Assembly: GCA_902522415.1 (NCBI GenBank)
Contig: CABYVI010000003.1
Location: 5,092-69,091 of the forward strand
Length of the DNA: 64,000 nt
Reading direction: 5' to 3'
Source of the DNA: an uncultured SAR116 cluster alpha proteobacterium
GTDB taxonomy: Bacteria; Pseudomonadota; Alphaproteobacteria; Puniceispirillales; GCA-002684695
Position numbers and translations under genes: made by a program. This document shows positions 11,918 to 34,250 of this stretch, one piece after another. Below the pieces are notes generated by a model, which was not told where the DNA came from, did no database searches, and worked only from the letters and a program-made list of their open reading frames with translations. Within the stretch, counting starts at the first letter, position 1, and every line of letters starts with the position of its first letter.

Positions 11918-11934
11918 TAAAATTAAAAAAGTGT

Positions 11935-11967: not shown

Positions 11968-12024
11968 TGAAGTGGTCAGCGCCCTTCAAAAAATTAATAT
12001 TATTTAGTCAATGAAGGGATAGTT
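11968..12024 (+). promoter_or_regulatory. Flagellin 1 leader: hairpin with GGTCAGCG loop plus alternative RBS-sequestering pairing
   Basis: TGAAG-TGGTCAGCGCC-CTTCA hairpin. CCCTTCA can instead pair with the RBS repeat TGAAGGG at 12012-12018. Confidence 0.5.
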
Positions 12025-14100: not shown

Positions 14101-14334
14101 AATAATACACTTCGTTTAAAAATTATAGAACAAAGTAACTATTGCAAATTATATGCCCAAACAGTCACTTTTTCTAAATAAAGCTGAAAAGAAAAAAACA
14201 TTTAACTCTACATTATTATTTAGGCAATTTTAAACAAAATTTTTGTGAAAAAACCCATAATAAACGACACAAAAAAAATTTGTTTAGAAATAAAAAAAAA
14301 TAATAAAATCAATAACTTTTTACTAAAAATAAAC

Positions 14335-14360
14335 TAAACATTTTTACTATATGCCGTTCA
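14335..14360 (+). promoter_or_regulatory. Sigma-28-like promoter of flagellin 2 (TAAA-N14-GCCGTTCA)
   Basis: TAAACATTTTT...GCCGTTCA, same architecture as 11935-11960. Confidence 0.5.
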
Positions 14361-14370
14361 TTTACTTGTA

Positions 14371-14434
14371 CGGAGGTGGTCAGCGAAAACCTTCTCCGCG
14401 TTTAAATTTAATTAACTCGGAAAGGAGACAAAAA
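14371..14434 (+). promoter_or_regulatory. Flagellin 2 leader: hairpin with GGTCAGCGAAAA loop and anti-SD arm
   Basis: CGGAGGT-GGTCAGCGAAAA-CCTTCTCCG. The 3' arm CCTTCTCCG is also complementary to the RBS region CGGAAAGGAG at 14418-14427. Confidence 0.5.
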
Positions 14435-15952
14435 ATGGTCTCAGTGAATACTAATATTGCGTCAGTTGACGCTAGAAACACATTAATGGGTAATAATGTA
14501 ACGATGGAAAAAGCATTCGAAAGACTTTCAAGTGGAAAGAGAATTAACAGCTCAAGTGATGATGCTGCGGGTCTTCAAATTGCAAATAGCCTAACATCTC
14601 AAATTAATGGTCTAAAAATGGCAGCAAAAAATGCTGGTGATGGTATTTCATTAGTAAATACAGTTGATGGAGCTTTAAGCGAAGCAACTGACATTTTACA
14701 AAGAATGCGTGAACTTGCTGTTCAATCTTCTTCAGATACAAATGCTGGACAAGATAGAGTTTTTATCCAAGAAGAAATAAACGCACTTAATACAGAACTT
14801 AATAGAATTTCATCTACCACTCAATTTAATGGGGTGAACGTTCTTGATGGCACATTCGGTGATGTATCACTTCAGGTAGGTTATGATCCAAGCCAAACTG
14901 TTAATATGAGTGTTACTTCTTCAGACTCTGCAACATTAGGTGCATACCAGGATACATCAACAGTCGAAACATTGGCCGTAGTTGATACATATGCATTAGC
15001 AACCGCAGGTTTAACGACAACTATTGCTGACGCAGGTGATTACACAGTTTCAGGTTTTTTTGGTTCTGATACAGCATATATCGCAGCTGAGGCAGGGGCA
15101 AGAGACACAGCTGCAGCTTTCAACTTAATTGCAGGTAATACTGGCATTACAGCAACTGCAGAAACCAGAGCAAGACTTACTGTAAGTGCTGCCGCAACAT
15201 TAACTTTTGACCTTTATGGCAAAAGTTCAACTAAGTCTTCAGTGACAGCAGTTATTTCTGACACATCTGATTTATCAAACTTGAAGGATGCCATTAACGC
15301 AGTCAGTGGATCCACTGGGATTTCCGCAACTCTTACATCTGATAAAGCAGGCGTCAATATAGTTAATCCAGAGGGTTATACGATATTTTTTGCTGATGTG
15401 ACAGCTGCTGGCGGTACTGATGCAGATCTACAGGTTGCAAATTTAACTGTCGACGCTGCTGGTGCTGAAACAACAGCTAACCAAGTTGCAATGAAAGGTG
15501 ATGCAGCTACTGATGATAGTACATATGTATTAGGTCAAGTTACATTGTCTTCAGATAAAGCATTTGCTTTAAGTTCTGGAAATGCTGCAAACCATTTTGC
15601 AACAGATACTTCAGTTCAAACTAGTGCGTTGAGCCAACTAGGCGATATTAACCTTAAAAATATCCATGGTGCTCAAAAAGCTTTAGCGATAATTGATAAA
15701 GCCATTAATATGATCGATACAACACGTTCAACAATGGGTGCTTTAAATAATCGTCTTGAAAGTACTATTAACAATCTGAATAATATTCAGGTAAAAACGG
15801 AAGCGTCTCTTTCCAGAGTAATGGATGCTGATTATGCAGAAGAGACAACTTCCTTATCTAAATCTCAAGTCTTAACTCAGGCAGCTACTGCTATGCTAGC
15901 GCAAGCAAACCAAGCTCCTCAAGGAGTATTAAGATTACTTCAGGCAGGATAA
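14435..15952 (+). CDS. fliC: Flagellin (505 aa; true start MVSVNTN, not the ORF-track ATG at 14351)
   Basis: AAAGGAGA RBS 7 nt before ATG 14435; RLSSGKRINSSSDDAAGLQIA ... AQANQAPQGVLRLLQ. Confidence 0.93.
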   Translation: MVSVNTNIASVDARNTLMGNNVTMEKAFERLSSGKRINSSSDDAAGLQIANSLTSQINGLKMAAKNAGDGISLVNTVDGALSEATDILQRMRELAVQSSSDTNAGQDRVFIQEEINALNTELNRISSTTQFNGVNVLDGTFGDVSLQVGYDPSQTVNMSVTSSDSATLGAYQDTSTVETLAVVDTYALATAGLTTTIADAGDYTVSGFFGSDTAYIAAEAGARDTAAAFNLIAGNTGITATAETRARLTVSAAATLTFDLYGKSSTKSSVTAVISDTSDLSNLKDAINAVSGSTGISATLTSDKAGVNIVNPEGYTIFFADVTAAGGTDADLQVANLTVDAAGAETTANQVAMKGDAATDDSTYVLGQVTLSSDKAFALSSGNAANHFATDTSVQTSALSQLGDINLKNIHGAQKALAIIDKAINMIDTTRSTMGALNNRLESTINNLNNIQVKTEASLSRVMDADYAEETTSLSKSQVLTQAATAMLAQANQAPQGVLRLLQAG

Positions 15953-16004
15953 AGGCCGCCATTGGATTTGAGAAACTAATGGTAGTTTAGTCTACCTACT
16001 ACGG

Positions 16005-16048
16005 AGCCCCAATTTAGAAATGACCGTCTAAGTTGGGGCTAAAAAAAA
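16005..16048 (+). other. 14-bp hairpin (loop AATGACCG) followed by an A8 run, in the flagellin 2/3 intergenic region
   Basis: AGCCCCAATTTAGA-AATGACCG-TCTAAGTTGGGGCT, one G.U pair; no U-run, so not a canonical terminator. Confidence 0.5.
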
Positions 16049-16084
16049 CTCAAGATGAAAGTCTTGAACAACAAGGAGATAAAT

Positions 16085-17658: not shown

Positions 17659-17674
17659 TGGCATGGTATTTGCT
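17659..17674 (+). promoter_or_regulatory. Sigma-54 promoter of the 802-aa flagellin
   Basis: TGGCAT-GGTAT-TTGCT, 40 nt upstream of ATG 17714. Confidence 0.7.
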
Positions 17675-17713
17675 CATTGGACGTTGACCTCAAAATAAAA
17701 TAAAGGTGCAACA

Positions 17714-20122
17714 ATGAGTATTTTAACAAATTTAGCGGCTTTAAAATCGCTGTATCACATAAATCAGAATGAAGGTGAATTCTCTACTTCAGTAGAAAGA
17801 GTGTCTTCTGGTAAAAGAGTAAATAACGCAGGCGATGATGCTGCAGGCGCATCAATCATCAATAGAATGACATCTCAGGTACAGGGTATGAGCGTTGCAA
17901 TAAGAAATGCTGGAGATGCTATTTCTATGGCTCAAGTAGCTGAAGGCGCACTCGATGAAACAACAGAAATTTTACACAGACTGAGAGAAATAGCTGTTCA
18001 GTCTGCTAATGGAACTTACAGCGGCGCGAATAGAGTTGCACTAAACGCCGAAGTTGTTGCATTAAAAACAGAGTTATTAAGAATCGCTGAATCTACAAAA
18101 TTTAATGATGTAAAATTATTAAATGGGCAATTTCAAGATACTACATTTGCTATTGGTTATGATGAAAGTCCCGGTCATACACACTCATTAAGTATTGAGT
18201 CTGTAAAGCCAGATGACCTTGGTATGTGGACAATTACAACCGAACAGGAAAATACTGCCACTCTTAAAACAAGTGGAATGGGAAATTATGGAGAAGCTGC
18301 AAATATAGACACTGCAGCTGATCATTTATTTGAAACAGGTGATATTATTACTTATGAACAGGGACCAGCTGCTACAAGTATTCCAGTTCCAGGTCTAGTA
18401 GACGGGAAAAGTTATAAAGTGACAGTTGTTGACTCTGATTCATTTACTCTTACACATCTTGATGGATCAAAGGTTAAATATGGCGCAATCTCAAATTTTG
18501 GCACACCATCAAATGCTAAATTTCATTTACAAAGTATCTCTAATGCACCAACAGTAGGCTTGTCCAAAGGTTCTTACGCAGCCACTGGGGGAACTGATCA
18601 ATCAGCACCAGCATCAGAGGTTTTAAAAACAGAAGATGTTATGGTCCACGGACATGTTGGTTCATCTGAAGTACAGTTAAGAACTGGAATGACAGCTCTT
18701 GAAATTGCTAATGCAGTATCAAATATGGATTCACTTACCGGTGTTCGTGCTTCAGCAGTAACAAATGCTCGAATAACAGTATCACCAAGCGATAATACTG
18801 ATGATAAGCATGTGATTGCATTTGATTTGCAGGGTATGAATACAACTACACCAGTAAAAATTTCAGCAACCATAGGATTTGGTACAGGTGACGAAGTTCA
18901 TTCAGCAGACCTCTCTGATCTAAGAGATAAAATTAATGGTTTCACAGGCACAACAGGAATTTATGCAAAACTTTCATCAGACAAAAGCTATATTGATATA
19001 AAATCACCAGATGGATATGATGTTGTAATTGACAATGTGGATATGCCAACTGACACCGGCACAACGTTAACCCAAGCACTTGTTAACGCGAGTGGAGCAA
19101 ATACGAGTGATACAATTACCTCAGCATTAGCTCATGGATTTCAAGTAGGTGACATGATTAAGCTAACGGATGTCCATGGTGAAACAGGACTTGTTGGAAT
19201 AGATATGGAAACAACCTATTTTGTCAAAACTGCTCCAACATCTACAACCTTTACTTTAGCAACAGGTTCGCCAGATGGAACAACTGTTGATATTACAACA
19301 ACCAACAACGGTCATTTAGAATTTACTAAATTAGAAAAAACACTTAACCTTCAGACACTTGACAGAGACCTTAATGTAAAAGGTGGCAAAGTAAAGTTAA
19401 TGGATAAAGACATTGAATTACAAGGCTCTGGAGTTGGTGCTGTTATGACATCAGTAGCGTCAAGTGCATCAAATGCAAATATTACCTGCAGCAATGACCA
19501 TAGGTTGCAAGTTGGAGATGTTGTAAAATATACTGTAGGAAGTGTAGTTATTGCTGGATTGACAGATGGTGAATTCTACAAAGTTAAGGCTACATCATCT
19601 GATACAGTTTTTACATTAGAGAATTTAGATGGAACCGATCCTACTTATGGTGGCTCTGGAACTGGTGGCACATTTACTAAAGTAGTATCAAATGAAAATT
19701 CATTGCGACTAACAGGTGAAGTTCAATTTGAATCTGCTTATACATTTACTGTTGTTCCAGCAGTTCAGGACTCTTTATTCAGAGCAGCACCACCTGCAGC
19801 AAACTTAAATAAAGTTTCAGATCTTGATGTTTTAACAGTTGAAAAGTCACATAAATTTCTTACAGCTCTTGATGGAGCTATTAAAAGAATTGACGCAGAA
19901 CGTGGTGACCTTGGTGCGACAATGAATAGAATGCAACATACAATTGATAATTTATCAAATGTAATTGTTGGGACTAAATCAGCACGTGGCAGAATTGAAG
20001 ATGCAGACATGGCTGCAGAAACTGCTAATCTAGCAAAAAATCAAATTCTCCAGCAAGCAGCAACCGCAATGCTTGGTCAAGCAAACCAATCAATGCAAAC
20101 AATTCTTACACTTCTAAGATAA
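17714..20122 (+). CDS. fliC: Large flagellin (802 aa) with three HGF-x-x-GD-type modules in the variable region
   Basis: RVSSGKRVNNAGDDAAGASII N-terminus, DLGATMNRMQHTIDNL...GQANQSMQTILTLLR C-terminus; flagellin-IN-like motifs; modules at about 18300-18532, 19108-19330 and 19465-19686. Confidence 0.9.
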   Translation: MSILTNLAALKSLYHINQNEGEFSTSVERVSSGKRVNNAGDDAAGASIINRMTSQVQGMSVAIRNAGDAISMAQVAEGALDETTEILHRLREIAVQSANGTYSGANRVALNAEVVALKTELLRIAESTKFNDVKLLNGQFQDTTFAIGYDESPGHTHSLSIESVKPDDLGMWTITTEQENTATLKTSGMGNYGEAANIDTAADHLFETGDIITYEQGPAATSIPVPGLVDGKSYKVTVVDSDSFTLTHLDGSKVKYGAISNFGTPSNAKFHLQSISNAPTVGLSKGSYAATGGTDQSAPASEVLKTEDVMVHGHVGSSEVQLRTGMTALEIANAVSNMDSLTGVRASAVTNARITVSPSDNTDDKHVIAFDLQGMNTTTPVKISATIGFGTGDEVHSADLSDLRDKINGFTGTTGIYAKLSSDKSYIDIKSPDGYDVVIDNVDMPTDTGTTLTQALVNASGANTSDTITSALAHGFQVGDMIKLTDVHGETGLVGIDMETTYFVKTAPTSTTFTLATGSPDGTTVDITTTNNGHLEFTKLEKTLNLQTLDRDLNVKGGKVKLMDKDIELQGSGVGAVMTSVASSASNANITCSNDHRLQVGDVVKYTVGSVVIAGLTDGEFYKVKATSSDTVFTLENLDGTDPTYGGSGTGGTFTKVVSNENSLRLTGEVQFESAYTFTVVPAVQDSLFRAAPPAANLNKVSDLDVLTVEKSHKFLTALDGAIKRIDAERGDLGATMNRMQHTIDNLSNVIVGTKSARGRIEDADMAAETANLAKNQILQQAATAMLGQANQSMQTILTLLR

Positions 20123-20184: not shown

Positions 20185-21624
20185 ATGGAAAATAATTTTG
20201 TTGTTAATAAATTAAAAAATGACAATAACTTAATTTCTTTTCACAATCAGGCCGATATATACAATAACAAAGGTCTTGACTTTTTTCAAAATAATGATTT
20301 TGGGAATGCACTAATCTGCTTTTTCCAAGCTTTGACCCATGATAAGAATTATGCTCATGCATATTCCAATATAGGTAATATTCTCATTCAAAAAGGTGAA
20401 TTTGAAGAAGCTATTAGTATGTATCAAAAAGCAATAAATATTGATAATCAGAATAGCTTATATCATTTCAATCTCGGAATAGCTTATTCAAATGTTAATA
20501 ATAATAAAGCATCTGCTAAAGAATATAAAAGAAGCTTAAAATTAGATCCAGGTAACTTAAAAGCTTATAAATTTCTCGGAAATTGTTACATCAAATTAAA
20601 AGATTTCAAAAAAGCTATCGATACCTACCGAAAATGGTCAGAATTAGATCCCCAAAACCCAGAACCAAATTTTATTCTCGGGCAAATACATGTGAGAAAT
20701 GGACGCTTTAATTTAGGATGGAAATTATACGAATACGGATTGAAGAATAATATAAGAAAACCTTTAAGTGGCTTTTATCACGAAAAAAAGGAAATATGGG
20801 ATGGAAAACCATTTAACGGGTCACTTCTCGTTTACGGTGAACAAGGTCTTGGAGATCAAATAAACTTTGGAACTTTACTTTTTGAACTCCTAAAAATTCA
20901 AAAGAACGTTTGTGTAAAAGTAAATAAAAAATTAGTTGATTTATTTACTTGTACTTTTCCAACAATGAGAGTTTTCAGCGAGGAAGAAGAAATTCCGCAA
21001 AATGTTTACGATAAATATATTGCTCTTGGAAGCCTAAATAAATTCTTAAAAAAACATACAAATGATTATCTTAATTCAAAATTTTATCCATTAAAAGTAC
21101 ATGGCAATAGATACCTCGAGATTAATAATTTTTTTTCTAAACTAAATGGTTTTAATATAGGAATATCCTGGCACTCTTTTTCTAGTAAAACAGGCAAAGA
21201 CAGATGCTTGAAAACACATGAATTAGCTAAAATTGTTAGTGTTCAAAATATTAATTTTTTCAATATCCAGTATGGAAATGTACATAATCAGGTCAAAGAA
21301 GTTAATTTTACTTCAGGTAAAGAGATTTTGAGAGTGCCTTTCGTTGATTTGACTAATGATATTTCATCAGTAGCTGACATTATTAATAATTGTGACTTAA
21401 TAATTTCTGTAGACAATACAACAGCACATTTAGCTGCTGCTTTAGGTAAACCTGTTTGGTTATTATTGCCTTTTAATGCTGACTTTAGATGGATGGAAGA
21501 TATTACAACATCTCTCTGGTATAAAAATGTCACTTTAATTAGACAACAAAAAGAGCATGATTGGTCTAATGAAATTGAAATAATTTACAACTCACTAAAT
21601 AGCTCAAATATAGACAAAAAATAA
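20185..21624 (+). CDS. TPR-repeat protein fused to a GT9-like (heptosyltransferase-fold) glycosyltransferase domain; FlmG-like architecture, candidate flagellin glycosyltransferase
   Basis: N-terminal TPRs. C-terminus has EQGLGDQINF, GISWHS, DLIISVDNTTAHLAAALGKPVWLLLP, FRWMED..SLWY. Location next to the flagellins. Confidence 0.7.
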   Translation: MENNFVVNKLKNDNNLISFHNQADIYNNKGLDFFQNNDFGNALICFFQALTHDKNYAHAYSNIGNILIQKGEFEEAISMYQKAINIDNQNSLYHFNLGIAYSNVNNNKASAKEYKRSLKLDPGNLKAYKFLGNCYIKLKDFKKAIDTYRKWSELDPQNPEPNFILGQIHVRNGRFNLGWKLYEYGLKNNIRKPLSGFYHEKKEIWDGKPFNGSLLVYGEQGLGDQINFGTLLFELLKIQKNVCVKVNKKLVDLFTCTFPTMRVFSEEEEIPQNVYDKYIALGSLNKFLKKHTNDYLNSKFYPLKVHGNRYLEINNFFSKLNGFNIGISWHSFSSKTGKDRCLKTHELAKIVSVQNINFFNIQYGNVHNQVKEVNFTSGKEILRVPFVDLTNDISSVADIINNCDLIISVDNTTAHLAAALGKPVWLLLPFNADFRWMEDITTSLWYKNVTLIRQQKEHDWSNEIEIIYNSLNSSNIDKK

Positions 21625-21640
21625 TTTTCAGAAGGTTTAA

Positions 21641-23833
21641 ATGCACGATATTATTCTATCTCTTGATCAATTAATGACCAGTTCCATTCAAGCAAATAAA
21701 TATGGAAATAAAACTCAAGCATTAAAATATTTTAAAAAATTTGAGGATAAAAAAAATGAAGCCATAGAATTGGCTAAACAGGCTGCTAAAGATGGTAATG
21801 TCAAATTAGTTGATGAAATACTTGGATGCTTAAACAAGTTAAAAAATTATTACAAAACTAATTTACCTGTTGAAACAAAAGAAGAAAATAAACATAGATT
21901 AGAAGAAATATTTGCAATCTATAATCAAGGAAATTTTGAAAAAACCATTTCAATTATTAAGAGCCAACTAGAAAAAAATAATCAAAATCCCAATTTATAT
22001 AACTTATTAGCTTTAAGTTTTTTTAATATCGGAAAGTTAGATCACTCAATTAAATCTTTCCATGAAGGATTAAATAGTTTTCCAAATAATTTTCATTTAA
22101 ATAATAATATTAGTGTTGTTTATAAAGAAATAAAAGATTTTGATAAAGCTTTACTCTATGGTTTAAGAGCTTTTAAGATTGATCCCAATTCTGATGAAGC
22201 ATCTACCAATTTAGGTAATATTTTCTTCGAAACTGAGAACTACGATAAATCTTTATTGTACTTTAAAAAGTCAATTTCACTTAACCCACATAATTCAACC
22301 ACAATTTACAACTTCGCAGTCTGCAACTTAAAATTAAATAATTACAAACTTGCTGATGAAGCTATTAATCTAGCTTTAAGACATCAACCAGATAATCATG
22401 AATTTTTGAATGTTAAAGGACAAATTTTAAGAGAAATGGGAAGACATGATGCATCTGAAGAGTTTTTTTACAAGGCTTTGGATTTAAATTCTAACTCAGT
22501 TTTGACCTTGAATAATTTAGGAATTTTATTACAAGACAAAGTCAAATATAAAGAATCATTAGTTATATTCAAAAAAGCATTAAGTATAGAACCTAATAAT
22601 ATTAATTTTCTATGTAATATTGCCAATTCTTATTTACACCTTGGAAGTAATAAAAAAGCAATTGAATACCTTGATAAATGTTTAATAGTTAACCCAAATT
22701 TTGATAAGGCTTTTTCATTAAAAGGGATAATTTATGCTCATTTAGGACAGAAAGAAAAGTCAGTAAAGAGTTTTAAAAATGCAATTAAAATTAATAACTT
22801 TAACGCCGATGCATATAGGCAATTATCAAGACTTCAAAATTTTAAGACAGGTGACCCTCTCATAAAACAAATGGAACAAGTTTATGATAATAAGTTTTTA
22901 ATACCAGAAGAGAGAGCAATAATGTCTTTTGCATTAGGAAAAGGTTATGAGGATCTTAAAGAATATTCAAAAAGTTTTAATTTTTATAAAAATGGTAATG
23001 ATTTTTATAAAAACAAATACAGACCTCAAATCATACCAGAAGAAGTTTTTTTTAAAAATTTAGCTAAAACAAGTATTAATATTGATACGAATAAAAAGTT
23101 ACTAAAATATAATTTAAAACCTATTTTTGTTTTAGGCTTACCAAGATCTGGAACATCTCTTATTGAACAGATACTATCATCTCATTCTAAAGTAGAAGGG
23201 ATGGGAGAATTAAATTCACTTAGTAAATTTATTGAAAGTAATCTAATTACATATAAAGAAGGGTTTTCTCCAATTATTAAAAAATTTAATAAGGAAGAAC
23301 AAATAAATTTATCCAATTTTTATATGGATTCAGTTAAAACTATTGATAGCAGCGCAAAATATTTTGTTGATAAAATGCCACATAATTTTAGATGGATAAG
23401 TTATATTTTAAATTCTTACTTTTCAGCAAAAGTAATTCTGGTTGAAAGAAATCCCATGGACAATTGTTTTTCCTTATTCAAAATGCTATTTTCTTCAAGA
23501 CAACAACATTCATATTCATTTGATCTTGAAGTACTAGGAAAATATTATTTGATATATAAGGACTTAGTTAACCATTGGAAAGAAATGTATAAAAATAATA
23601 TCTATACTTGCAAATATGAAAAACTTATTTCAGATCCAGAGACTGAAATAAAAAAATTATTAGATTTCTGTAACATTAAATGGGAAGATAAAATAATGAG
23701 ATTTTATGAGACAAAAAGGTCAGTTAATACTGCTAGTCATACTCAAGTAAGACAAAAATTGTATTCTAGCTCTATTGGTTCATGGAAAAACTATGAAAAT
23801 GAATTACAGCCTCTGAAGAAAATTATTAACTAA
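21641..23833 (+). CDS. TPR-repeat protein fused to a C-terminal sulfotransferase domain
   Basis: About 10 TPRs, then a PAPS-binding 5'-PSB-like motif GLPRSGTSLIEQILSSH and a sulfotransferase-type C-terminus (VERNPMDNCFS ... YEKLISDPETEIKKLLDFC). Confidence 0.7.
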   Translation: MHDIILSLDQLMTSSIQANKYGNKTQALKYFKKFEDKKNEAIELAKQAAKDGNVKLVDEILGCLNKLKNYYKTNLPVETKEENKHRLEEIFAIYNQGNFEKTISIIKSQLEKNNQNPNLYNLLALSFFNIGKLDHSIKSFHEGLNSFPNNFHLNNNISVVYKEIKDFDKALLYGLRAFKIDPNSDEASTNLGNIFFETENYDKSLLYFKKSISLNPHNSTTIYNFAVCNLKLNNYKLADEAINLALRHQPDNHEFLNVKGQILREMGRHDASEEFFYKALDLNSNSVLTLNNLGILLQDKVKYKESLVIFKKALSIEPNNINFLCNIANSYLHLGSNKKAIEYLDKCLIVNPNFDKAFSLKGIIYAHLGQKEKSVKSFKNAIKINNFNADAYRQLSRLQNFKTGDPLIKQMEQVYDNKFLIPEERAIMSFALGKGYEDLKEYSKSFNFYKNGNDFYKNKYRPQIIPEEVFFKNLAKTSINIDTNKKLLKYNLKPIFVLGLPRSGTSLIEQILSSHSKVEGMGELNSLSKFIESNLITYKEGFSPIIKKFNKEEQINLSNFYMDSVKTIDSSAKYFVDKMPHNFRWISYILNSYFSAKVILVERNPMDNCFSLFKMLFSSRQQHSYSFDLEVLGKYYLIYKDLVNHWKEMYKNNIYTCKYEKLISDPETEIKKLLDFCNIKWEDKIMRFYETKRSVNTASHTQVRQKLYSSSIGSWKNYENELQPLKKIIN

Positions 23834-23834
23834 A

Positions 23835-25391
23835 TCAAAAAAGTTTATTTTTACAAATTTCAATTAATTTCAAAATTTCCTTGTCCCATGACATTGTCTT
23901 TCTTAAAATATAGGTTTTTGGATACCAAAGACTATTAGTACTATTATCAAACCATCTCCAGTCACTTACTTCAGGGATTAGTGCCACAGTATCTTTTTTA
24001 AGTAAGCTTGATAAATGAAGTGTTGAATTATCTATTGAGATAACCATATCGCAAGCTAAAATTTTTTCAGCTAGTCCTTCAATATTATTTTTATTATCAG
24101 TGTTATCTTCAACAAAAAGACATTTTTTAATTTTTTTAGAAACGCGATCAATTTCCGTTTTAAAATCGCCATATTGAAGGTTAATAAAATTTGCATCTAA
24201 ATTTGTAAAGAGGGGGGCAAATTGTTTTAATTTAATATTTCTCTTTGGTCCAAGCTGTTTATTATTAGTATGCCAAGAAATGCCAATAGTGACTTTATTA
24301 TTATTAATTAATAATTTTAATTTATTTCTCTTACTTTTGTTCTCGGTAAAATTAAAATTAGTTGCTCTAGCAAAATCACTTTCTCTTTTTAGAAAATATT
24401 TACAAAGAGATCCAATAGGAAGATAAGATTCGTATTTTTTTTCTATTGCCTCATCAAATGTTGTTATAAATTCATGTTTTATGTCAGATATACGAAATAA
24501 ATTCTTTAGTCTTTCATCCAGTAAAAGTCCTAATCTATACTTTTTTGAATCTAAATTTTTCAAAAGCGATGAAAACATTAATTCATCACCTAAACCCTGC
24601 TCACCTACAATTAAAATTGAGTTAAAATTTAAATTTGGCTCCCATTTTGGAAGTATGCTAAGAGCTTTTTTTTCTACTCTAAGTTTCCTTTCCCCAAGTT
24701 CAATACCTATTTCGTATCTGTCCCAACCAGCATCAAAACATTTTTCTTTTAAATTTATTATTCCAAGGTTATATTTTGCTTTTTTAGAAGACAACCTGCT
24801 TAATATTTTCTTGGATTTTTCTAAAAATCCTAGTTGATACAAATTTGATGCTATATTTAATTCTACATCATGTCTCTTTTCATTTAAATTTGAAATTTTA
24901 GTGTATTCTGACAAAGATTTTTCAAAATCTCCTTTTAAAAAAAAGATTTTACCAAAAAGGTCAATAACTTTATAAGAATTAGGTTCGATTTTCTTAGCTT
25001 TCTTGGCATAAATCAATGAGTTTTCAAATTCTTCATTTTCATAGAATATCTTTGATATTTCTATTATTGTTTTTACACAAAGAGGTCTAATTTTATGCGA
25101 ATGGAGATAGTGTTTCATTGCAATTTTTGGTTTTTTTGCATCTCTAAATAAATTTGCTAAATTAAAATAATTATCAAATTCATTTGGAAATAAATCACAT
25201 AAAATTTGGAAGTATTTTATAGCTTGAGAAAATTTTTTCTGTTTAGCCAATGAAACAGCAAGCAAATTACATAACCACGGATCAGTAAACCCCTTACTTA
25301 AAAGATAAGTGGCATCTTGTTCAACGTTGTAATAATTACCAGAGTTATAAGTGTTTAAAATTTTATTTTTAAAGTTTTGGCTTACAAGCAT
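23835..25391 (-). CDS. Second TPR plus GT9-like glycosyltransferase fusion, immediately downstream of fliD
   Basis: TPRs; EQGLGDELMF, GISWHT, DMVISIDNSTLHLSSLL, DWRWFDNSTNSLWYP; paralogue of 20185-21624. Confidence 0.7.
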   Translation of the reverse strand: MLVSQNFKNKILNTYNSGNYYNVEQDATYLLSKGFTDPWLCNLLAVSLAKQKKFSQAIKYFQILCDLFPNEFDNYFNLANLFRDAKKPKIAMKHYLHSHKIRPLCVKTIIEISKIFYENEEFENSLIYAKKAKKIEPNSYKVIDLFGKIFFLKGDFEKSLSEYTKISNLNEKRHDVELNIASNLYQLGFLEKSKKILSRLSSKKAKYNLGIINLKEKCFDAGWDRYEIGIELGERKLRVEKKALSILPKWEPNLNFNSILIVGEQGLGDELMFSSLLKNLDSKKYRLGLLLDERLKNLFRISDIKHEFITTFDEAIEKKYESYLPIGSLCKYFLKRESDFARATNFNFTENKSKRNKLKLLINNNKVTIGISWHTNNKQLGPKRNIKLKQFAPLFTNLDANFINLQYGDFKTEIDRVSKKIKKCLFVEDNTDNKNNIEGLAEKILACDMVISIDNSTLHLSSLLKKDTVALIPEVSDWRWFDNSTNSLWYPKTYILRKTMSWDKEILKLIEICKNKLF

Positions 25392-27731: not shown

Positions 27732-28367
27732 ATGTTTAATCTATCGCCTCAATATAATTTGCTTTTAGATCAATATAGTTACATGGCAGAAAACGGATAC
27801 CATAGAACTGATGGTCAATTTGTAAAAAATGTATATTCAGATGCTGAGCCTTTGAAGTTTTCAGAGAGCATAAAGGAAATTGTTAAGTGTTTTAATTCAA
27901 AAAATGCTTTAGATTATGGTTCAGGTGGAACTAATTTAAACACTAAAATACTAAAAGAAGATATTAAGTTTATTGACTTCATAGGTCTAAAAAAAATTTA
28001 TTCTTATGAGCCTGCTAGAAAAAAAGGCAACCCTAAAAAATGTGATTTGGTTTTATGCTTTGATGTTCTTGAACATATCTTTATTAATGATATTCCGTGG
28101 GTTTTAAAAGAATTATTTGCAAATGCAAAACAATGTGTAATCATAAATGTTGCTTGCTATAAAGCTGCTGCACTTTTACCTAATGGAGAAAATGCACACA
28201 TAACAGTAAGACCTCCCCATTGGTGGTTAGGACAAATCGAGTGTATAAGCACATTGTATCCTGAAGTTTATTGGGCACTTTTTACTTCTCAAGGTCATCA
28301 GAATTTTGATTTTCTTGGTGTGCATAGAATGAAAGACAAAATAGATAGCAAAAAATTTGTCCAGTAA
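27732..28367 (+). CDS. Putative class I SAM-dependent methyltransferase (211 aa)
   Basis: Motif I-like LDYGSGGT, and CDLVLCFDVLEHI; sits in the flagellin-modification neighbourhood. Confidence 0.55.
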   Translation: MFNLSPQYNLLLDQYSYMAENGYHRTDGQFVKNVYSDAEPLKFSESIKEIVKCFNSKNALDYGSGGTNLNTKILKEDIKFIDFIGLKKIYSYEPARKKGNPKKCDLVLCFDVLEHIFINDIPWVLKELFANAKQCVIINVACYKAAALLPNGENAHITVRPPHWWLGQIECISTLYPEVYWALFTSQGHQNFDFLGVHRMKDKIDSKKFVQ

Positions 28368-28424
28368 AAAAAATATTAAAAATTCTTAAAAGTTTTATAC
28401 AAATCTCCGTTACTATATATGAGA

Positions 28425-28440
28425 CTATTTCGCTGACCTC
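28425..28440 (+). other. 16-nt sequence exactly complementary to the loop of sRNA copy 2, displayed in the hairpin GACTAT/ATAGTC
   Basis: CTATTTCGCTGACCTC is the reverse complement of GAGGTCAGCGAAATAG at 30448-30463. Confidence 0.8.
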
Positions 28441-28442
28441 AT

Positions 28443-28478
28443 AGTCCCTCCATATATTAATGGAGGGACTTTCACTTT
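28443..28478 (+). terminator. Probable intrinsic terminator of the 27732 transcript
   Basis: AGTCCCTCCA-TATATTAA-TGGAGGGACT followed by the T-rich TTCACTTT. Confidence 0.5.
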
Positions 28479-28494
28479 ATATTGTAATATGATT

Positions 28495-28543: not shown

Positions 28544-30163
28544 ATGTTAATAGATAGAAAACTATCAACAGCTGAAAAACTCAGAAAAATCGGAAATTTT
28601 GAACAAGCAATTATTATTTATGAAGAAATTCTCTCTAAATTCCCATTAAATAAACGTGCTCAATTAGGGAAATCTTCTTGCATAAAATATGCACCTCAAA
28701 TGGAGTTGGATTTTGTCATAAACTTATTTGATAAAAAATTATATAATGAAGCTGAGAGCGAAATTCAGAATTTGATAGTTAAATATAAAAATGATGAGAA
28801 TTTATATAATATTTATGGTGCTATCTTATCTAGACTACAAATATTTGACAAAGCAAAAGAGAAATATCAAAAAGCATTAGAATTGAACCCTAGATTCCCT
28901 GAAGCTCTCAATAATCTTGCGGAATTAATGAACCAAACTAAAGAATTTAATGAAGCAAAGCAATTATGCGAAGAGGCCATAAAACTTAATAAGAATTATG
29001 CAGAGGCTTACAATAATTTAGGTAATTCATATCTAAACCTAGGATCTTACAAGGAAGCAAATACTTTTTATGAAAAATCTTTATTCCTTAACAATCCTAA
29101 CAAATATAGCGTTTTAAATAATTTAGGATTAGTGAATGCTTTTCTAAATAATTTTAAAGTTTCCAATAAATATTTAATTCAGGCAACTAATTTGATCCCA
29201 AAAGAAATTGAAGCAGTTAATACATTAGCTTCAATAGCAATTTATCAAGATAAAGCGGATTATAGTAATATTTCTGATCATTTAATAAAAAATTTAGATT
29301 TTTATGACACAAAAAGTAAAATCTTCATTTTAACTTACTTAAGCATCCTCTTTTATATTGAAGGTGAAATAGAGAAATCAAAAAATTATAACAAGAATCT
29401 AATAAATAGATTAAATGAATTCTTAGAAAACAGAAGAATTTTTGAACCTAAGGATTTAAATTTTGTAAAGGCTTATAGTTCTTTTTTGCGTTCTTTAAAT
29501 AAAATGGCTGCCCAAGAAAGCTTAACTAATAATTTATCAAATAAAAATATAATTTATCATTTAGGTGAGAGCCATTGCCTATCCTTTGCTCATAGAAACA
29601 TTCAAATCAATGATAAAAAATTTAGAATTAAACCTTTAATAACTGTAGGAGCTAAAGCCTGGCATCTCACAGACAAAAGACATAATAAGCAAAAACCTTT
29701 TTTCATTTCGCAATTGAAAAAGGTTCCTTACAATTCAAAGGTATTTATATCTATTGGCGAAATAGATACCAGAATTAGTGAAGGTATTATTACATTCCAT
29801 CAGAAATCAAAAAAAGATTTAAATGAAATAATTAAAGAAACTGTATATGGTTATGTGAGTTTTATTGAAAGCTTTTTAGAGAGTAAACAAATAGAAAAAT
29901 TCTATTTTAGTGTTCATGCCCCTTATCAAATTCGAGAAAATAAAGACTATAACTCTGAACTTGAACTGAGAAGAATAGAAGTTATCAAGACTTTCAATAA
30001 TTATTTAGAAAAATATACTAAAGAGTTTAATTCTAAATTTATAGACACCTTTAGCTTTACATGTAATGAAAAAGGCGAGTCCAACAAGAAATATATGATT
30101 GATCCAACACATCTTTCACCAAAAGCTCTACCAATCATTGAAACAAAGATTAATAATCTTTAG
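28544..30163 (+). CDS. TPR-repeat protein with an uncharacterised ~220-aa C-terminal domain
   Basis: N-terminal TPRs similar to the neighbouring TPR enzymes. I do not recognise the C-terminal half (HLGESHCLSF...ISIGEIDTR...). Confidence 0.6.
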   Translation: MLIDRKLSTAEKLRKIGNFEQAIIIYEEILSKFPLNKRAQLGKSSCIKYAPQMELDFVINLFDKKLYNEAESEIQNLIVKYKNDENLYNIYGAILSRLQIFDKAKEKYQKALELNPRFPEALNNLAELMNQTKEFNEAKQLCEEAIKLNKNYAEAYNNLGNSYLNLGSYKEANTFYEKSLFLNNPNKYSVLNNLGLVNAFLNNFKVSNKYLIQATNLIPKEIEAVNTLASIAIYQDKADYSNISDHLIKNLDFYDTKSKIFILTYLSILFYIEGEIEKSKNYNKNLINRLNEFLENRRIFEPKDLNFVKAYSSFLRSLNKMAAQESLTNNLSNKNIIYHLGESHCLSFAHRNIQINDKKFRIKPLITVGAKAWHLTDKRHNKQKPFFISQLKKVPYNSKVFISIGEIDTRISEGIITFHQKSKKDLNEIIKETVYGYVSFIESFLESKQIEKFYFSVHAPYQIRENKDYNSELELRRIEVIKTFNNYLEKYTKEFNSKFIDTFSFTCNEKGESNKKYMIDPTHLSPKALPIIETKINNL

Positions 30164-30172
30164 TTTGTTGTT

Positions 30173-30188
30173 TGGCATAAATATTGCT
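30173..30188 (+). promoter_or_regulatory. Sigma-54 promoter of sRNA copy 1
   Basis: TGGCAT-AAATA-TTGCT. Confidence 0.65.
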
Positions 30189-30197
30189 CAATATAAA

Positions 30198-30275
30198 TGT
30201 TCCTAGAGGTCAGCGAAAATAGCTAGGAACAATCTCCGATGGCGGTCTTGTCTTTAGTGGCAAGGCCGCTTTTTT
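30198..30275 (+). ncRNA. Candidate small RNA, copy 1 (about 78 nt)
   Basis: GTTCCTAG-AGGTCAGCGAAAATAG-CTAGGAAC hairpin, CAATCTCCGATG linker, terminator GCGGTCTTG...CAAGGCCGC plus T6. Confidence 0.6.
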
Positions 30276-30413
30276 AACATTATATCTAACTAGATTAATT
30301 TTATAAAACAGTTATTAATTTGAAGTAATTGTCAATACAAACTTAAGCACCTATACGATATATCTAGGCAATTATATGATATTTTTAATACTATTTTTTC
30401 AAGTCTTAAACTT

Positions 30414-30429
30414 TGGCATGACTATTGCA
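30414..30429 (+). promoter_or_regulatory. Sigma-54 promoter of sRNA copy 2
   Basis: TGGCAT-GACTA-TTGCA. Confidence 0.65.
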
Positions 30430-30439
30430 AATCATAAGT

Positions 30440-30524
30440 AGTTCCTAGAGGTCAGCGAAATAGCTAGGAACAATCTCCGATGGCGGTCTTGTTGATTTAA
30501 CTCTTCAAGACCGCTAATTTTTTT
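30440..30524 (+). ncRNA. Candidate small RNA, copy 2 (about 85 nt)
   Basis: Same hairpin (loop AGGTCAGCGAAATAG), same linker, terminator GCGGTCTTG...CAAGACCGC plus T7. Confidence 0.6.
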
Positions 30525-30536
30525 AATTTCATACTT

Positions 30537-30552
30537 TGGCATGACTATTGCA
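30537..30552 (+). promoter_or_regulatory. Sigma-54 promoter of sRNA copy 3
   Basis: TGGCAT-GACTA-TTGCA, identical to copy 2. Confidence 0.65.
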
Positions 30553-30562
30553 AATTATTAGT

Positions 30563-30648
30563 CAGTTCCTAGAGGTCTGCGAAAATAGCTAGGAACAATC
30601 TCCGATGGCGGTCTTGTTGATTTAACTCTTCAAGACCGCTAATTTTTT
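30563..30648 (+). ncRNA. Candidate small RNA, copy 3 (about 86 nt)
   Basis: Near-identical direct repeat of copy 2; loop variant AGGTCTGCGAAAATAG; same terminator plus T6. Confidence 0.6.
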
Positions 30649-30658
30649 GAGTTTAATT

Positions 30659-31039
30659 TTATGCTAATAAATTAACTTTTTTAGTAAATCTTGGTTCTTC
30701 AACAGACCAACTTGATATTCTTGAATATTTCGTTTGCGCAACATTATGAGTATACATAGGAGATGATAAAGATTTAGCCATAAGAAATGTTTCAGATGTA
30801 ACAGCTGAAGGTGCTCCATCAGGGTGAGAAATTCTATTCATAGAATATCTTTTCAAGTCCAAATTAGTTTTAGTGACTGCGCCAGGGTTAAAAACTCCAA
30901 CAGAAGTTTGTCTTTCACTTGGCATTAAATTTGCACTAATTCCAAGAAGTTGAGTGTTAGTTTGAGACAAATTGTTTCTAACATTAACGTTTCGGCTAAT
31001 ATTTGAGTTAGAAATATTGTTCAAAATTGGATTATCCAT
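30659..31039 (-). CDS. Hypothetical S/T/N-rich protein (126 aa), cysteine-free, probably disordered
   Basis: Intact ORF divergent from fliS; its composition resembles flagellar export substrates or regulators, but I find no diagnostic motif. Confidence 0.4.
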   Translation of the reverse strand: MDNPILNNISNSNISRNVNVRNNLSQTNTQLLGISANLMPSERQTSVGVFNPGAVTKTNLDLKRYSMNRISHPDGAPSAVTSETFLMAKSLSSPMYTHNVAQTKYSRISSWSVEEPRFTKKVNLLA

Positions 31040-31786: not shown

Positions 31787-32908
31787 TTAATGATTAATTG
31801 AGAGTTTTTTCATTTTCTCAATTAATGTTGTTCTGTTTAGCCTTAAGCATTCAGATGCTTTTGTGATATGACCACTATTTTTTTCAATTGCAGCTTTGAT
31901 TAAAACTTCCTCTACATCTATTAAGTGCCTTCTTATATCAATGCTGTCATAGTATAAAAACCAATCACTATAGTGAGAAGGGTCAGGTAATGGAGGACTG
32001 TTTTCATTTTCTGCATCTTCCTCAATTTCAAAAGATATATTTGAAGTTGCTTCCCACATAGCATCTTTTTCAATTTGAGGATCAGGCACTTTAAGCCTGA
32101 GAAGATTTTCTAATACATTTTTACCATTAATTTTTTTATTAGGAAATAAAACTGCAGCCCTTTCAACAACATTTCTAAGTTCTCTGATGTTTCCAGGCCA
32201 ATTATATCTTCCCAATTCTCTAAAAGCAGTATCATCAAATTCAGGAATATTATCCCCCTGTTTTCTTAATTCTGACAACATAAATTCAACAATTACAGGT
32301 ATATCAACAATCCTTTCTGCAAGACTAGGCACAATGATTGGAAAAACATTTATTCTAAAAAATAAATCTGCTCTAAATTTTCCTTCATCTACATATTTAT
32401 CAATATTCTGATGTGTGGCACAAATTAACCTTAAATCAATTTTAATTTCTTTATCACCACCCACTCTTTGGATAGTTTTGTTTTCAAGTGCCCTTAGTAA
32501 TTTACTCTGCAGTGAAAGAGGCATGTCTCCAATTTCATCTAAAAATAATGTTCCACCACTTGATTGCTCAAAGCGCCCTGCCCGCGATTTATCAGCGCCT
32601 GTGAAGGCACCTTTCTCATGTCCAAATAACTCACTTTCAAGAAGTTCTGTTGGAATTGCTGCGCAATTTACTGAAATCAATGGTCCTTTTTTTCCAGACG
32701 CTTCGTGAATACCTTTTGCAACAAGTTCTTTGCCTGACCCAGTTGGACCTAAAATTAATGCTGAACTTCCTGTTGGCGCCACTACAGACATCAGACGTTT
32801 CAACTCACTTGCAGGTGCTGAAATTCCTGAGATAAGCTTGTTTATTGATAATGGTATTAAATTTGGATCTTTATTTAGCTTTGTCATAAATTTGTCATTA
32901 CTTAACAA
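31787..32908 (-). CDS. Sigma-54 enhancer-binding protein: AAA+ domain plus C-terminal Fis-type HTH, no receiver domain (FleQ/FlrA-like)
   Basis: Walker A GPTGSGKE, ESELFGHEKGAFTGA (GAFTGA loop), GGTLFLDEIGDM, WPGNIRELRNVVER; C-terminal HITKASECLRLNRTTLIEKMKKL; only about 45 aa precede the AAA+ domain. Confidence 0.85.
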   Translation of the reverse strand: MLSNDKFMTKLNKDPNLIPLSINKLISGISAPASELKRLMSVVAPTGSSALILGPTGSGKELVAKGIHEASGKKGPLISVNCAAIPTELLESELFGHEKGAFTGADKSRAGRFEQSSGGTLFLDEIGDMPLSLQSKLLRALENKTIQRVGGDKEIKIDLRLICATHQNIDKYVDEGKFRADLFFRINVFPIIVPSLAERIVDIPVIVEFMLSELRKQGDNIPEFDDTAFRELGRYNWPGNIRELRNVVERAAVLFPNKKINGKNVLENLLRLKVPDPQIEKDAMWEATSNISFEIEEDAENENSPPLPDPSHYSDWFLYYDSIDIRRHLIDVEEVLIKAAIEKNSGHITKASECLRLNRTTLIEKMKKLSINH

Positions 32909-33092: not shown

Positions 33093-34250
33093 ATGAAAAA
33101 TGTAGGTATCATTAAAGAGAATTTTGATCTTGCACATAAATTGACTAAATTACTTAATACAAAACAAATGAATATAGTTGAGCTTCCACTATATAATTCT
33201 GTTCAGATTAATAGCTTAGTTCTAAGTGCTGCAAAAGAGATTGAGATGGGCGGCCAGCAAGCTGTAATCGAATTTTCAAGAAATACCAAAGCTGATCAGA
33301 TAATGATAATCGAAGAAAAAGCAAAAACTTACAAAACTGAAGTGAATTTCGGTGGAAAATTAATCAAAATTAGCATCCCTGAAAAAGAAGATACTCATGA
33401 CTGGATATTGGAGATATCCGCACAAATGCTCGCTACTAAAGAGTTAGTGATGGCAAACGATATTAGAAGTAGAGAACTTTTAGCTTTAGCAAAAAAGGTT
33501 GCAACTACAAATGTTACTGTTTTTATCAATGGTCCTACAGGAACTGGTAAAGAAGTAATTTCAAATTTCATTCATAATAATAGTTCAAGATCAGAATTTC
33601 CTTTTGTGGCAGTCAACTGTGCAGCTATTCCAGAGAACATGCTTGAAGCAATTTTATTTGGACATGAAAAGGGTTCATTTACTGGAGCCTCTCAGGCCAA
33701 TAAAGGTATTTTCCGAGCTGCAGATGGAGGCACTCTTTTGTTAGATGAAATTTCTGAAATGCCACTTTCACTTCAGTCAAAGCTTTTAAGAGTACTACAG
33801 GAGAGAAAAGTAACACCAATTGGTGGATCAAAAGATGTTCAAGTAGATGTACGAGTTGTTGCGACAACTAATCGAGATATGCTTTCAGAAATAAAAAAAG
33901 GAACATTCAGAGAAGACTTATACTATAGGCTTAATGTTTTTCCTCTAAGAACTTTAGCACTTAAAGAGAGACCAGATGATATATTACCTATAAGTGCTGC
34001 ATTACTTAAAAAACATACAAGTGAAGACAAATCTCTACCACTTTTAACAGCTAAAGCATTAGATGTTTTGAAAAATCATTCATGGCCTGGGAATGTAAGA
34101 GAATTAGAGAATGTATTACAAAGAGCAATGGTAATTTGTAATGAAGATATAATAACTGAAAATGACATAATGATTGATAATTCGGCAATTAGTACAGAGA
34201 GGAACCTTGCTGATAGAATTCAATCTGGAAATATGGTTGCTACTGCATAA
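33093..34250 (+). CDS. Sigma-54 enhancer-binding protein with an N-terminal ~130-aa domain and AAA+ core but no DNA-binding HTH (FleT-like)
   Basis: GPTGTGKE, FGHEKGSFTGA, GGTLLLDEISEM, WPGNVRELENVLQR; the protein ends about 45 aa after the AAA+ core with no HTH; first gene before fliE, as fleT is in R. sphaeroides fla1. Confidence 0.8.
   Translation: MKNVGIIKENFDLAHKLTKLLNTKQMNIVELPLYNSVQINSLVLSAAKEIEMGGQQAVIEFSRNTKADQIMIIEEKAKTYKTEVNFGGKLIKISIPEKEDTHDWILEISAQMLATKELVMANDIRSRELLALAKKVATTNVTVFINGPTGTGKEVISNFIHNNSSRSEFPFVAVNCAAIPENMLEAILFGHEKGSFTGASQANKGIFRAADGGTLLLDEISEMPLSLQSKLLRVLQERKVTPIGGSKDVQVDVRVVATTNRDMLSEIKKGTFREDLYYRLNVFPLRTLALKERPDDILPISAALLKKHTSEDKSLPLLTAKALDVLKNHSWPGNVRELENVLQRAMVICNEDIITENDIMIDNSAISTERNLADRIQSGNMVATA

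Follow-up and report, generated by a model that had tools for sequence, protein, structure and literature searches.

The 64,000-nucleotide (nt) stretch analysed here (the window: positions 5,092 to 69,091 of contig CABYVI010000003.1, assembly GCA_902522415.1, from an uncultured alphaproteobacterium of the SAR116 cluster) contains a flagellar gene cluster in which three small RNA (sRNA) genes with predicted sigma-54 promoters lie in tandem at 30173–30648 on the + strand. The hairpin loop of these sRNAs is complementary to a second RNA of ~60 nt, predicted on the same strand at 28421–28480, and the two complementary segments change in step across related genomes. This co-variation is the strongest evidence of the study and is good evidence for direct RNA–RNA pairing. 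In the best-supported reading, the main interaction surface of the sRNA would be the hairpin loop and not the linker that follows it, and the partner RNA had been overlooked in an earlier note on this DNA. We propose that the sRNAs and the partner titrate each other, that they are controlled by successive sigma factors of the flagellar cascade, and that the sRNA loop mimics the leader of late flagellin mRNAs; we assign this reading a probability of about two in three.

Structure of the sRNA units

All three units follow the same order on the + strand, namely a promoter, a hairpin, a linker and a terminator. The sigma-54 (–24/–12) promoters, identified by their box pattern, are TGGCATAAATATTGCT at 30173–30188 for copy 1 and TGGCATGACTATTGCA at 30414–30429 and 30537–30552 for copies 2 and 3. 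A perfect 8-bp inverted repeat (GTTCCTAG/CTAGGAAC) starts 10–12 nt past each promoter and forms the hairpin. Given C(–12) at 30187, 30428 and 30551, the predicted +1 is the first hairpin base. The predicted transcripts, located by folding and by a covariance model, span 30199–30275 (copy 1, ~77 nt), 30440–30524 (copy 2, ~85 nt) and 30564–30648 (copy 3, ~85 nt). In copy 1, the arms GUUCCUAG and CUAGGAAC enclose the loop and are followed by the linker CAAUCUCCGAUGG (CAATCTCCGATGG in DNA letters), which is predicted to be unpaired, and by a terminator with U6. The loop reads AGGTCAGCGAAA(A)TAG, with GTCTGCG in copy 3 (loop variant GGUCUGCG); the loop of copy 2, GAGGUCAGCGAAAUAG, is complementary to the partner RNA over 16 nt without a mismatch, and the two were also cofolded. 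Each terminator is a GC-rich stem followed by T6–T7, and that of copy 1 was also detected by a pattern scan. For the predicted RNAs of 78–85 nt, folding gives two hairpins on either side of an unpaired linker and z-scores between –4.7 and –5.9 (copy 1: –32.1 kcal/mol, z –5.1, 94 bits with the covariance model). Copies 2 and 3 share 96% identity at a spacing of 123–125 nt. Copy 1 retains the core, and its flanks and upper terminator stem have diverged from those of the other two. The earlier note had described these four parts in three units, copies 2 and 3 as near-identical direct repeats and copy 1 as diverged in its flanks, and every part was found in place.

That note had also stated that only copy 1 has an ATG and that there is no conserved open reading frame (ORF). 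The ATG, within CCGATGG, occurs in all three copies. The frames that follow it share neither length (6 to >16 codons) nor sequence from copy to copy or from genome to genome, so the second half of the statement stands, and a small-peptide reading was rejected. A related proposal, that the units control the convergent 126-residue gene (30659–31039, minus strand) by antisense or read-through transcription or encode tiny peptides (MAVLLI and others) from the linker AUG, could draw on two features: 11 nt separate the end of the last copy from the convergent ORF's stop codon, and AGGA precedes the AUG in every copy. However, each copy has a strong terminator, the peptides are conserved neither in length nor in sequence, and the single AGGA of each sRNA is hidden within the hairpin stem, on its 3´ side; we regard this proposal as very improbable. 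An attenuator or riboswitch reading was rejected because nothing lies downstream of the units on the same strand.

A partner RNA complementary to the hairpin loop

The partner was found by scanning translation-initiation regions with the loop as query and then searching the window for the resulting motif. Its seed, CUAUUUCGCUGACCUC at 28425–28440, was recognised by complementarity and conservation, and CTATTTCGCTGACCTC at these positions (+ strand) is a perfect 16-nt reverse complement of the copy 2 loop. A terminator follows at 28444–28469, with a 10-bp GC-rich stem (GUCCCUCCAU/AUGGAGGGAC) and a U-rich tail. Upstream, at 28386–28413 (+ strand), lies a promoter-like element composed of TTAAAAG, a 13-nt spacer and TCCGTTAC, the last of which ends 7 nt before the anti-loop segment. 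The form and spacing of this element are those found upstream of the flagellin genes at 12025 and 14435, and it is kept in all relatives; from this similarity the promoter is probably of the sigma-28 type.

Each of the 27 related contigs that span this region has the partner element, always on the same strand as the sRNAs. Its position varies: it lies either ~100 nt upstream of a single sRNA gene or between two sRNA genes. In the window it is ~1.8 kb upstream of the sRNAs with a tetratricopeptide repeat (TPR) gene intervening (28544–30163); this gene occurs only in the window and in loci L007, L096, L116 and probably L101, where it splits the partner from the sRNAs. The terminator helix is diverse across lineages and still paired, with five of its eight pairs changed on both sides. 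In the loci of type A the partner stands between two terminated sRNA genes, which indicates that it is not a 3´ untranslated region (UTR) but an independent unit. We read it as an independent gene for a ~60-nt RNA that would present the anti-loop at a free 5´ end.

Co-variation of loop and partner

Four loop classes were observed, each accompanied by its own partner seed on the same contig. The loop GCG-AAA-TAGC occurs with CTA-TTT-CGC, GCG-AAAA-TAGC with CTA-TTTT-CGC, GCG-AAAAA-TAGC with CTA-TTTTT-CGC, and GCA-AAAA-TTGC with (G/A)TAATTTTGC or GTAGTTTTGC. Loop and partner thus change in step in 27/27 contigs, from GCG to GCA, from AUAG to AUUG and in A-runs of 3, 4 or 5, which amounts to two-sided changes at five loop/partner positions in addition to the length of the A/T run. 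Cognate loop–partner pairs form 11–20 contiguous Watson–Crick pairs in every one of these contigs. Beyond the invariant GGUCAGC/GCUGACC core, the next 7–9 positions are Watson–Crick or G–U pairs in 13 of 14 distinct combinations, whereas non-cognate class combinations yield 0–5 further paired positions, and none of 10,000 permutations of the partners reaches the observed mean pairing. Cofolding with the partner gives a free-energy change (ddG) of –21.8 kcal/mol for copy 2, –17.3 for copy 1 and –12.9 for copy 3, versus –2.2 ± 1.9 kcal/mol for shuffled seeds. The extended sRNA–partner complementarity that marks a sponge pair has been maintained in evolution.

The same symmetry could be read at the level of DNA, with the palindrome and the inverted loop and anti-loop as sites of a regulator such as FleQ/FleT and not as parts of RNAs. 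The 8-bp inverted repeat is nearly invariant and, in several loci, the anti-loop lies 64–100 bp upstream of a sigma-54-type promoter. However, no copy of the motif lies near the remaining sigma-54 promoters of the window, its distance to the next promoter ranges from ~64 to ~1,770 bp, and the A/T run varies from 3 to 5 in step between the partners. Moreover, a stem variant in L101 gives a G–U pair, which breaks the DNA palindrome, and every unit combines a promoter at constant distance with a same-strand covarying terminator. A purely DNA-level role is therefore highly improbable in our estimate.

Conservation of the sRNA family

A covariance model built from the three copies recovered full-length sRNAs in all five close SAR116 loci, each time upstream of the 126-residue ORF and fliS. 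Metagenome loci were retrieved with a 19-nt linker and terminator pattern that includes neither the loop nor the partner. This pattern matched 34 metagenome contigs, of which 28 are genuine low-GC marine sequences (GOS, Tara, JGI); the six high-GC chance matches (L090, L093, L103, L105, L111 and L121) were discarded. In total, 53 copies were found in 35 loci from SAR116 genomes and marine metagenomes, with one to three per locus; carriers of the locus include the SAR116 single-cell genomes AG-899-J15, AG-891-F06 and AG-343-K16 and the metagenome-assembled genome CPC30. Even at 71% FliS identity, hardly any change is seen in hairpin, loop and linker, while promoter spacers, terminator loops and flanks vary. 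A sigma-54 box (TGGCA-N6-TTGC) precedes every copy with enough upstream sequence, and the terminator is always present. The sRNA stems are 100% paired, with one compensatory change (C–G to U–A, in L112) and three G–U changes, and the upper terminator stem varies by lineage with its pairing kept. Within the sRNA stems, covariation was uninformative owing to their strong conservation: a single compensatory pair was seen, and 11 of 500 shuffles reached the observed value.

The conservation of bodies, promoters and terminators indicates that the units are real, selected elements. By comparative criteria they behave like genes of trans-acting sRNAs, with their own predicted promoter, no conserved ORF, a Rho-independent terminator and a body conserved above its flanks. 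The covariance-model search found no copy in 75 more distant loci of the Fla1 type (SAR116 at 42–50% GC, Parvibaculales, Rhodobacterales and others). Likewise, the sRNA-loop motif gave no match behind sigma-28-like boxes in the distant loci and none in two outgroup flagellin loci. The family therefore appears to be limited, among the relatives searched, to one low-GC SAR116 clade.

A scan of the whole window against Rfam 15 at gathering thresholds gave no match, including to Qrr, CsrB/RsmY/Z, NrsZ, AbcR and cuckoo/CcsR; the best score in 30000–30800 was for Yfr19 (20.4 bits versus a threshold of 70, E = 2.6). Only sub-threshold noise was obtained from the partner region and from three related loci. 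The earlier view that the sRNAs belong to no named family thus holds, and the check that it had suggested, a covariance-model scan of related genomes, recovered the copies described above with the hairpin loop conserved. Multiple exposed GGA motifs, as in sponges of the CsrB/RsmZ type, were not seen in the sRNAs, and no csrA was found in the cluster, so a sponge of this type is excluded. Literature searches returned no description of small RNAs in SAR116.

Sigma-54 promoters and flagellar setting

Sigma-54-dependent genes were recognised by GG at –24 and GC at –12 at exact spacing (TGGCAC-N5-TTGCW), together with an encoded enhancer-binding protein. The sRNAs combine this promoter pattern with two predicted activators encoded nearby (31787–32908 and 33093–34250), and are predicted to be sigma-54 genes on this basis. 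The pattern TGGCAY-N5-TTGCW has 8 matches in the window versus 0.2 expected (40-fold), a count reached by none of 100 shuffles. Beyond the sRNAs, five such sites precede flgG, the gene for an 802-residue flagellin, fliD, fliS and fliK, in agreement with the earlier note, which had listed flgG, fliD, fliK and the large flagellin among genes with promoters of this form. The fliS site, TGGCATTAAATTTGCA at 30920–30935 (+ strand), lies ~180 nt upstream of the gene within the 126-residue ORF, which is divergent from fliS and has no Pfam match. A TGGCA-N6-TTGCA box ~180 nt upstream of fliS is kept in nearly all of the first 40 loci listed (L006–L040), across the Alphaproteobacteria, which suggests that this promoter form is the functional one in the system. 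Comparative evidence thus supports the central claim of the earlier note, novel small RNA genes with predicted sigma-54 promoters in a flagellar regulon.

The flagellar cluster spans positions 1 to ~47,000 of the window, which has a GC content of 33%. It begins with flgG, flgH, flgI, flgJ, the gene for a 2026-residue FlgK, flgL and four flagellin genes. TPR and glycosyl-/sulfo-transferase genes, fliD, the sRNAs, the 126-residue ORF and fliS follow, and the last part comprises a sigma-54 activator with a helix-turn-helix domain, an activator without one, fliE-F-G-H-I-J-K-L-M-N-O-P-Q-R and flhB. This is the fleQ / fleT-fliEFGHIJ arrangement of a sigma-54-driven Fla1-type system, as in the Fla1 system of Cereibacter sphaeroides (PMC7277832). 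There, sigma-54 promoters are driven first by FleQ and later by FleQ/FleT, and the late genes, flagellin among them, by FliA (sigma-28) (PMC7277832). Neither flgM nor fliA is encoded in the window, and a search for a contig reaching further upstream found none. The FliS protein shares 73–92% identity with FliS of SAR116-cluster metagenome-assembled and single-cell genomes, with identical copies in marine metagenomes.

Linker targets

The earlier note had proposed that the CUCC-containing linker acts as an anti-Shine-Dalgarno (anti-SD) element. A scan of the window for linker targets gave only generic 6–7-bp SD matches (to those of flgI, flgG and the flagellin at 16085) and no convincing conserved target, so this proposal did not find support. 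An 11-bp match near 38199 was set aside, as it lies within the coding region of fliH. For the 802-residue flagellin, the spacer that leads from the sigma-54 box to the predicted mRNA start (CATTGGACGTTG, 17674–17686, + strand) matches the complement of the linker at 9 of 12 positions. It was rejected as a target, being upstream of the predicted transcription start and thus probably untranscribed, and not conserved in orthologues.

The linker nevertheless provides the case for sRNAs that act alone, with CAAUCUCCGAUGG blocking the SD of target mRNAs (for example flgM, as for Campylobacter FlmE) and the complementary neighbour being incidental. The linker is invariant in all 13 copies retrieved via FliS, which are free of bias from the retrieval pattern, and its CUCC is predicted to be unpaired. 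But the matches noted above are short and of the generic GGAGA type, and the co-varying loop–partner complementarity of 14–20 nt would be left unexplained. We regard this alternative as improbable.

Flagellin mRNA leaders

Two of the four flagellin genes carry sigma-28-like promoters and present the loop motif at the predicted 5´ end of their mRNAs. For the flagellin at 12025–13527 (+ strand), the promoter lies at 11934–11960 and is followed by a leader hairpin (11969–11987) with GGUCAGCG at 11974–11981. For that at 14435–15952 (+ strand), the promoter (14334–14360) precedes a hairpin at 14371–14398, the loop of which carries GGUCAGCGAAAA (14378–14389). Both promoters consist of [CT]TAAAC, a 13-nt spacer and G[AC]CGTT[TC]A, resembling the sigma-28 consensus TAAA-N15-GCCGATAA, and both mRNAs are predicted to start 7–8 nt past the box with a hairpin that shows GGUCAGCG in the same sense as the sRNA loop. 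The 3´ arm of the hairpin is complementary to the SD of its own mRNA in each case (CCCUUC to GAAGGG for 12025; the anti-SD-like CCUUCUCCG for 14435). The motif is kept in orthologous leaders of L087 and L088, with covarying stems (for 12025, GGAG/CUCC at position 2081 of L088), and GGTCAGCG is present in all five sigma-28-type flagellin leaders examined. Cofolding predicts that the partner pairs with the late flagellin leaders over 8–11 bp, with a ddG of –11 to –17 kcal/mol; the leader of 14435 has 11 nt complementary to the partner seed and reaches –17.1 kcal/mol.

A complementary relation is suggested for the 802-residue flagellin (17714–20122, + strand), which has a sigma-54 promoter at 17659–17674 and a 5´ UTR that extends to 17713. 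Its predicted mRNA start, (CGUU)GACCUCAAA (CGUUGACCUC at 17682–17691), resembles the anti-loop, contains a GACCUC complementary to the sRNA loop and was the top match of the scan for loop targets. GACCTCAA is invariant in all five ingroup orthologues, in which the bases between the promoter and GACCTCAA vary, and is absent from the two outgroup loci, both of which also lack the sRNA. For the window sequence, pairing of this segment with the SD region of its own mRNA is predicted as well. Pairing between the loop and this 5´ end covers 10 bp in the window, with 6–7 nt conserved in orthologues and a ddG of –5.4 kcal/mol; given these short and weak matches, a link between the sRNA and the 802-residue flagellin mRNA is tentative.

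The third flagellin of ~500 residues, for which the true start is the ATG at 16085, has neither the GGUCAGCG leader nor a sigma-28-like box. A hairpin (GAGCCCCAA...TTGGGGCT) followed by an A-run precedes it at 15990–16050 (+ strand). The 802-residue flagellin has an unusually large central region, the other three being ~500 residues.

The shared motif would also be expected if the loop were the site of an RNA-binding protein that controls flagellin translation (CsrA/FliW- or FlbT/FlaF-like), which the multi-copy sRNAs would sequester as decoys and the partner would mask, a scheme compatible with RNA–RNA pairing. GGUCAGCG stands in the same sense in 5´-end hairpins of the sRNAs and of the two flagellin mRNAs, the conservation of the loop exceeds the need of an 8–11-bp leader–partner pairing, and several gene copies fit a stoichiometric sponge. 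But neither Pfam scans nor inspection of small ORFs revealed a gene for CsrA, FliW, FlbT, FlaF or an Hfq-like protein in the 47-kb cluster, and there is one motif per RNA, unlike in CsrB-type sponges. The shift of loop sequence and length between clades together with the partner fits nucleic-acid pairing better. A protein decoy is accordingly an unlikely alternative, if slightly less so than sRNAs that act through the linker.

A model for mutual titration

In the favoured reading, mutual titration of sRNAs and partner, three ~80-nt sRNAs would be transcribed with the middle class of a Fla1-type regulon, each from a separate sigma-54 promoter and each with a hairpin that presents the 16-nt loop, a single-stranded linker and a terminator. 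The partner would be made late, from a sigma-28-like promoter like the late flagellins. The sRNA loop would pair with the 5´ end of the partner, probably by kissing of the loop and the 5´ end, and the contact would extend to 14–20 bp. Since GGUCAGCG occurs both in the sRNA loops and in the two late flagellin leaders, the sigma-54 sRNAs would mimic those leaders. The partner could pair either with the leaders (8–11 bp) or, much better, with the sRNAs, and with these two alternative pairings the sRNAs and the partner would titrate each other. Titration may delay the shift from middle (sigma-54) to late (sigma-28) expression or subject it to a threshold, which the one to three sRNA copies would set, above all as regards the choice of flagellin. 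The partner or the sRNA would act on flagellin leaders and change translation or stability. Two assignments of roles are conceivable: the partner may regulate the late flagellin leaders, with the sRNAs as leader-mimicking sponges made in advance, or the sRNAs may be the regulators (the loop acting on the sigma-54 flagellin mRNA and the linker elsewhere), with the partner as a late-stage sponge. What the sequences show directly is the anatomy of the genes, their conservation, their complementarity and its co-variation; that the promoters are active, that those of the late class are of the sigma-28 type, that the RNAs pair in vivo and that flagellin translation or stability is affected, we infer.

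Several points weigh against this model. Gene conversion of inverted segments, or a DNA-binding protein that sees both, might also produce co-variation; either is unlikely, because the complementarity is a tract of 16–20 nt with unrelated flanks and with matched A/T-run lengths of 3–5. The leaders keep GCG in genomes where sRNA and partner became GCA, so that pairing survives there through G–U only and the leaders lend no co-variation support. The relaxed sigma-28-like pattern has 6 matches in the window versus 2.7 expected, and the sigma-28 assignment follows similarity to the consensus, with fliA outside the window. The ends of both transcripts are predictions. Finally, a paired-sRNA model does not account for the conservation of the linker, and the apparent invariance of linker and terminator is biased by the 19-nt pattern with which the loci were retrieved.

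A more elaborate scheme, a symmetric four-node RNA switch that orders the flagellins, is possible but rather doubtful. The loop class (GGUCAGCG) would comprise the sigma-54 sRNAs and the sigma-28 flagellin leaders; the sigma-28 partner and the 5´-terminal segment of the sigma-54 flagellin mRNA would belong to the anti-loop class (GCUGACC / GACCUC). For each sRNA, pairing with the flagellin mRNA of the same stage, at SD-complementary leader elements, would be weak, and pairing with the opposite-stage sRNA would be strong. As the late sRNA builds up, it would free the early flagellin mRNA of the middle sRNA, and the converse would also apply. Such a switch, if it exists, would provide a sharp post-transcriptional hand-over from hook-proximal to distal flagellins.

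Relation to known systems

The closest functional parallel is the sRNA pair of Campylobacter jejuni, in which the RpoN-dependent FlmE (CJnc230) and the FliA-dependent FlmR (CJnc170) act in opposite directions and so adjust flagellin output and the passage from middle to late genes (PMC11187230). FlmE is processed from the flgE mRNA by RNase III and targets flgM (PMC11187230). The putative SAR116 pair would likewise have its place in the flagellar hierarchy, and its promoter forms fit RpoN and FliA, the latter by similarity to sigma-28 boxes only. It would work like the Campylobacter pair but is not a member of that family: there is no similarity in sequence or structure, the SAR116 copies each have their own predicted sigma-54 promoter in arrays of one to three, and mutual pairing or leader mimicry is not described for FlmE/FlmR (PMC11187230), whereas the SAR116 pair shares 14–20 nt of co-varying complementarity. 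The sigma-28-dependent sRNAs MotR, FliX, FlgO and UhpU of Escherichia coli feed back on flagellar genes (cited in PMC11187230) and resemble the SAR116 RNAs as small RNAs under a flagellar sigma factor. They differ in being UTR-derived, enterobacterial and Hfq-dependent, and are not known to include a sigma-54 member, a complementary pair or leader mimicry. Small RNAs under flagellar sigma factors are a recent concept from Campylobacter and E. coli, which this locus would extend to the uncultured and globally abundant marine SAR116 bacteria.

Qrr1–5 of Vibrio are multi-copy, sigma-54-dependent, terminator-ended RNAs of ~100 nt for which gene dosage matters; they have four stem-loops, serve the quorum-sensing regulon and are encoded by dispersed copies. 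The SAR116 sRNAs share the multi-copy sigma-54 form but have no Rfam match to Qrr, a different structure and regulon, and tandem copies. Sponges such as SroC and AgvB for GcvB, RosA for RoxS, and CJnc180/190 of C. jejuni neutralise sRNAs by extended pairing, on the principle of target mimicry, and most known examples are mRNA fragments, tRNA spacers, prophage RNAs or cis-antisense pairs. By contrast, both SAR116 RNAs would come from dedicated trans-encoded genes under two successive sigma factors of a single developmental cascade, with one RNA mimicking an mRNA leader hairpin. The plasmid antisense pairs CopA/CopT and RNAI/RNAII, which control replication through kissing loops, likewise use a hairpin loop as the recognition surface for a complementary RNA. 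They are cis-encoded on opposite strands, whereas the SAR116 genes lie on the same strand at separate sites, and the seed of the partner is probably a free 5´ end.

These comparisons suggest that what is new is the form that sigma-factor-controlled flagellar sRNAs would take here, a directly complementary, co-evolving pair with leader mimicry. If the model is correct, two dedicated sRNA genes under successive sigma factors, the products of which neutralise each other directly and one of which mimics a flagellin leader, would represent a new design principle. It would offer a testable account of how four flagellin genes (one of the sigma-54 type and at least two of the sigma-28 type) are timed and ordered. 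The four matched loop/partner classes constitute natural compensatory mutants, and since both RNAs are short, in vitro work is feasible without culturing.

Other features of the flagellar cluster

FlgK (4541–10621, + strand; 2026 residues) has an N-terminal FlgK_D1 domain, a C-terminal Flg_bbr_C domain and an internal Flagellin_IN motif, with an unusually large centre. Between the flagellins and fliD, the regions 20185–25391 and 28544–30163 encode TPR-repeat proteins fused to glycosyltransferase-9-like and sulfotransferase domains, which suggests glycosylation or sulfation of flagellin. Three sigma-54-like boxes with a deviant first base were also observed: AGGCAT-N5-TTGCA at 27693 (+ strand) before a methyltransferase-like ORF (27732–28367), the same sequence pattern at 28495 (+ strand) before the TPR gene at 28544–30163, and GGGCAT-N5-TTGCA at 14158 (minus strand) before an unannotated 180-residue ORF (13558–14100) between two flagellin genes. 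The starts of the longest ORFs are probably too far upstream for the flagellins listed from 14351 (versus 14435) and 16055 (versus 16085) and for a fliO-like ORF listed from 43862 (versus ~43925). The Flagellin_N domain begins at residue 32 of the first and at residue 14 of the second, and the fliO-like ORF, as listed, would begin inside its own sigma-54 box.

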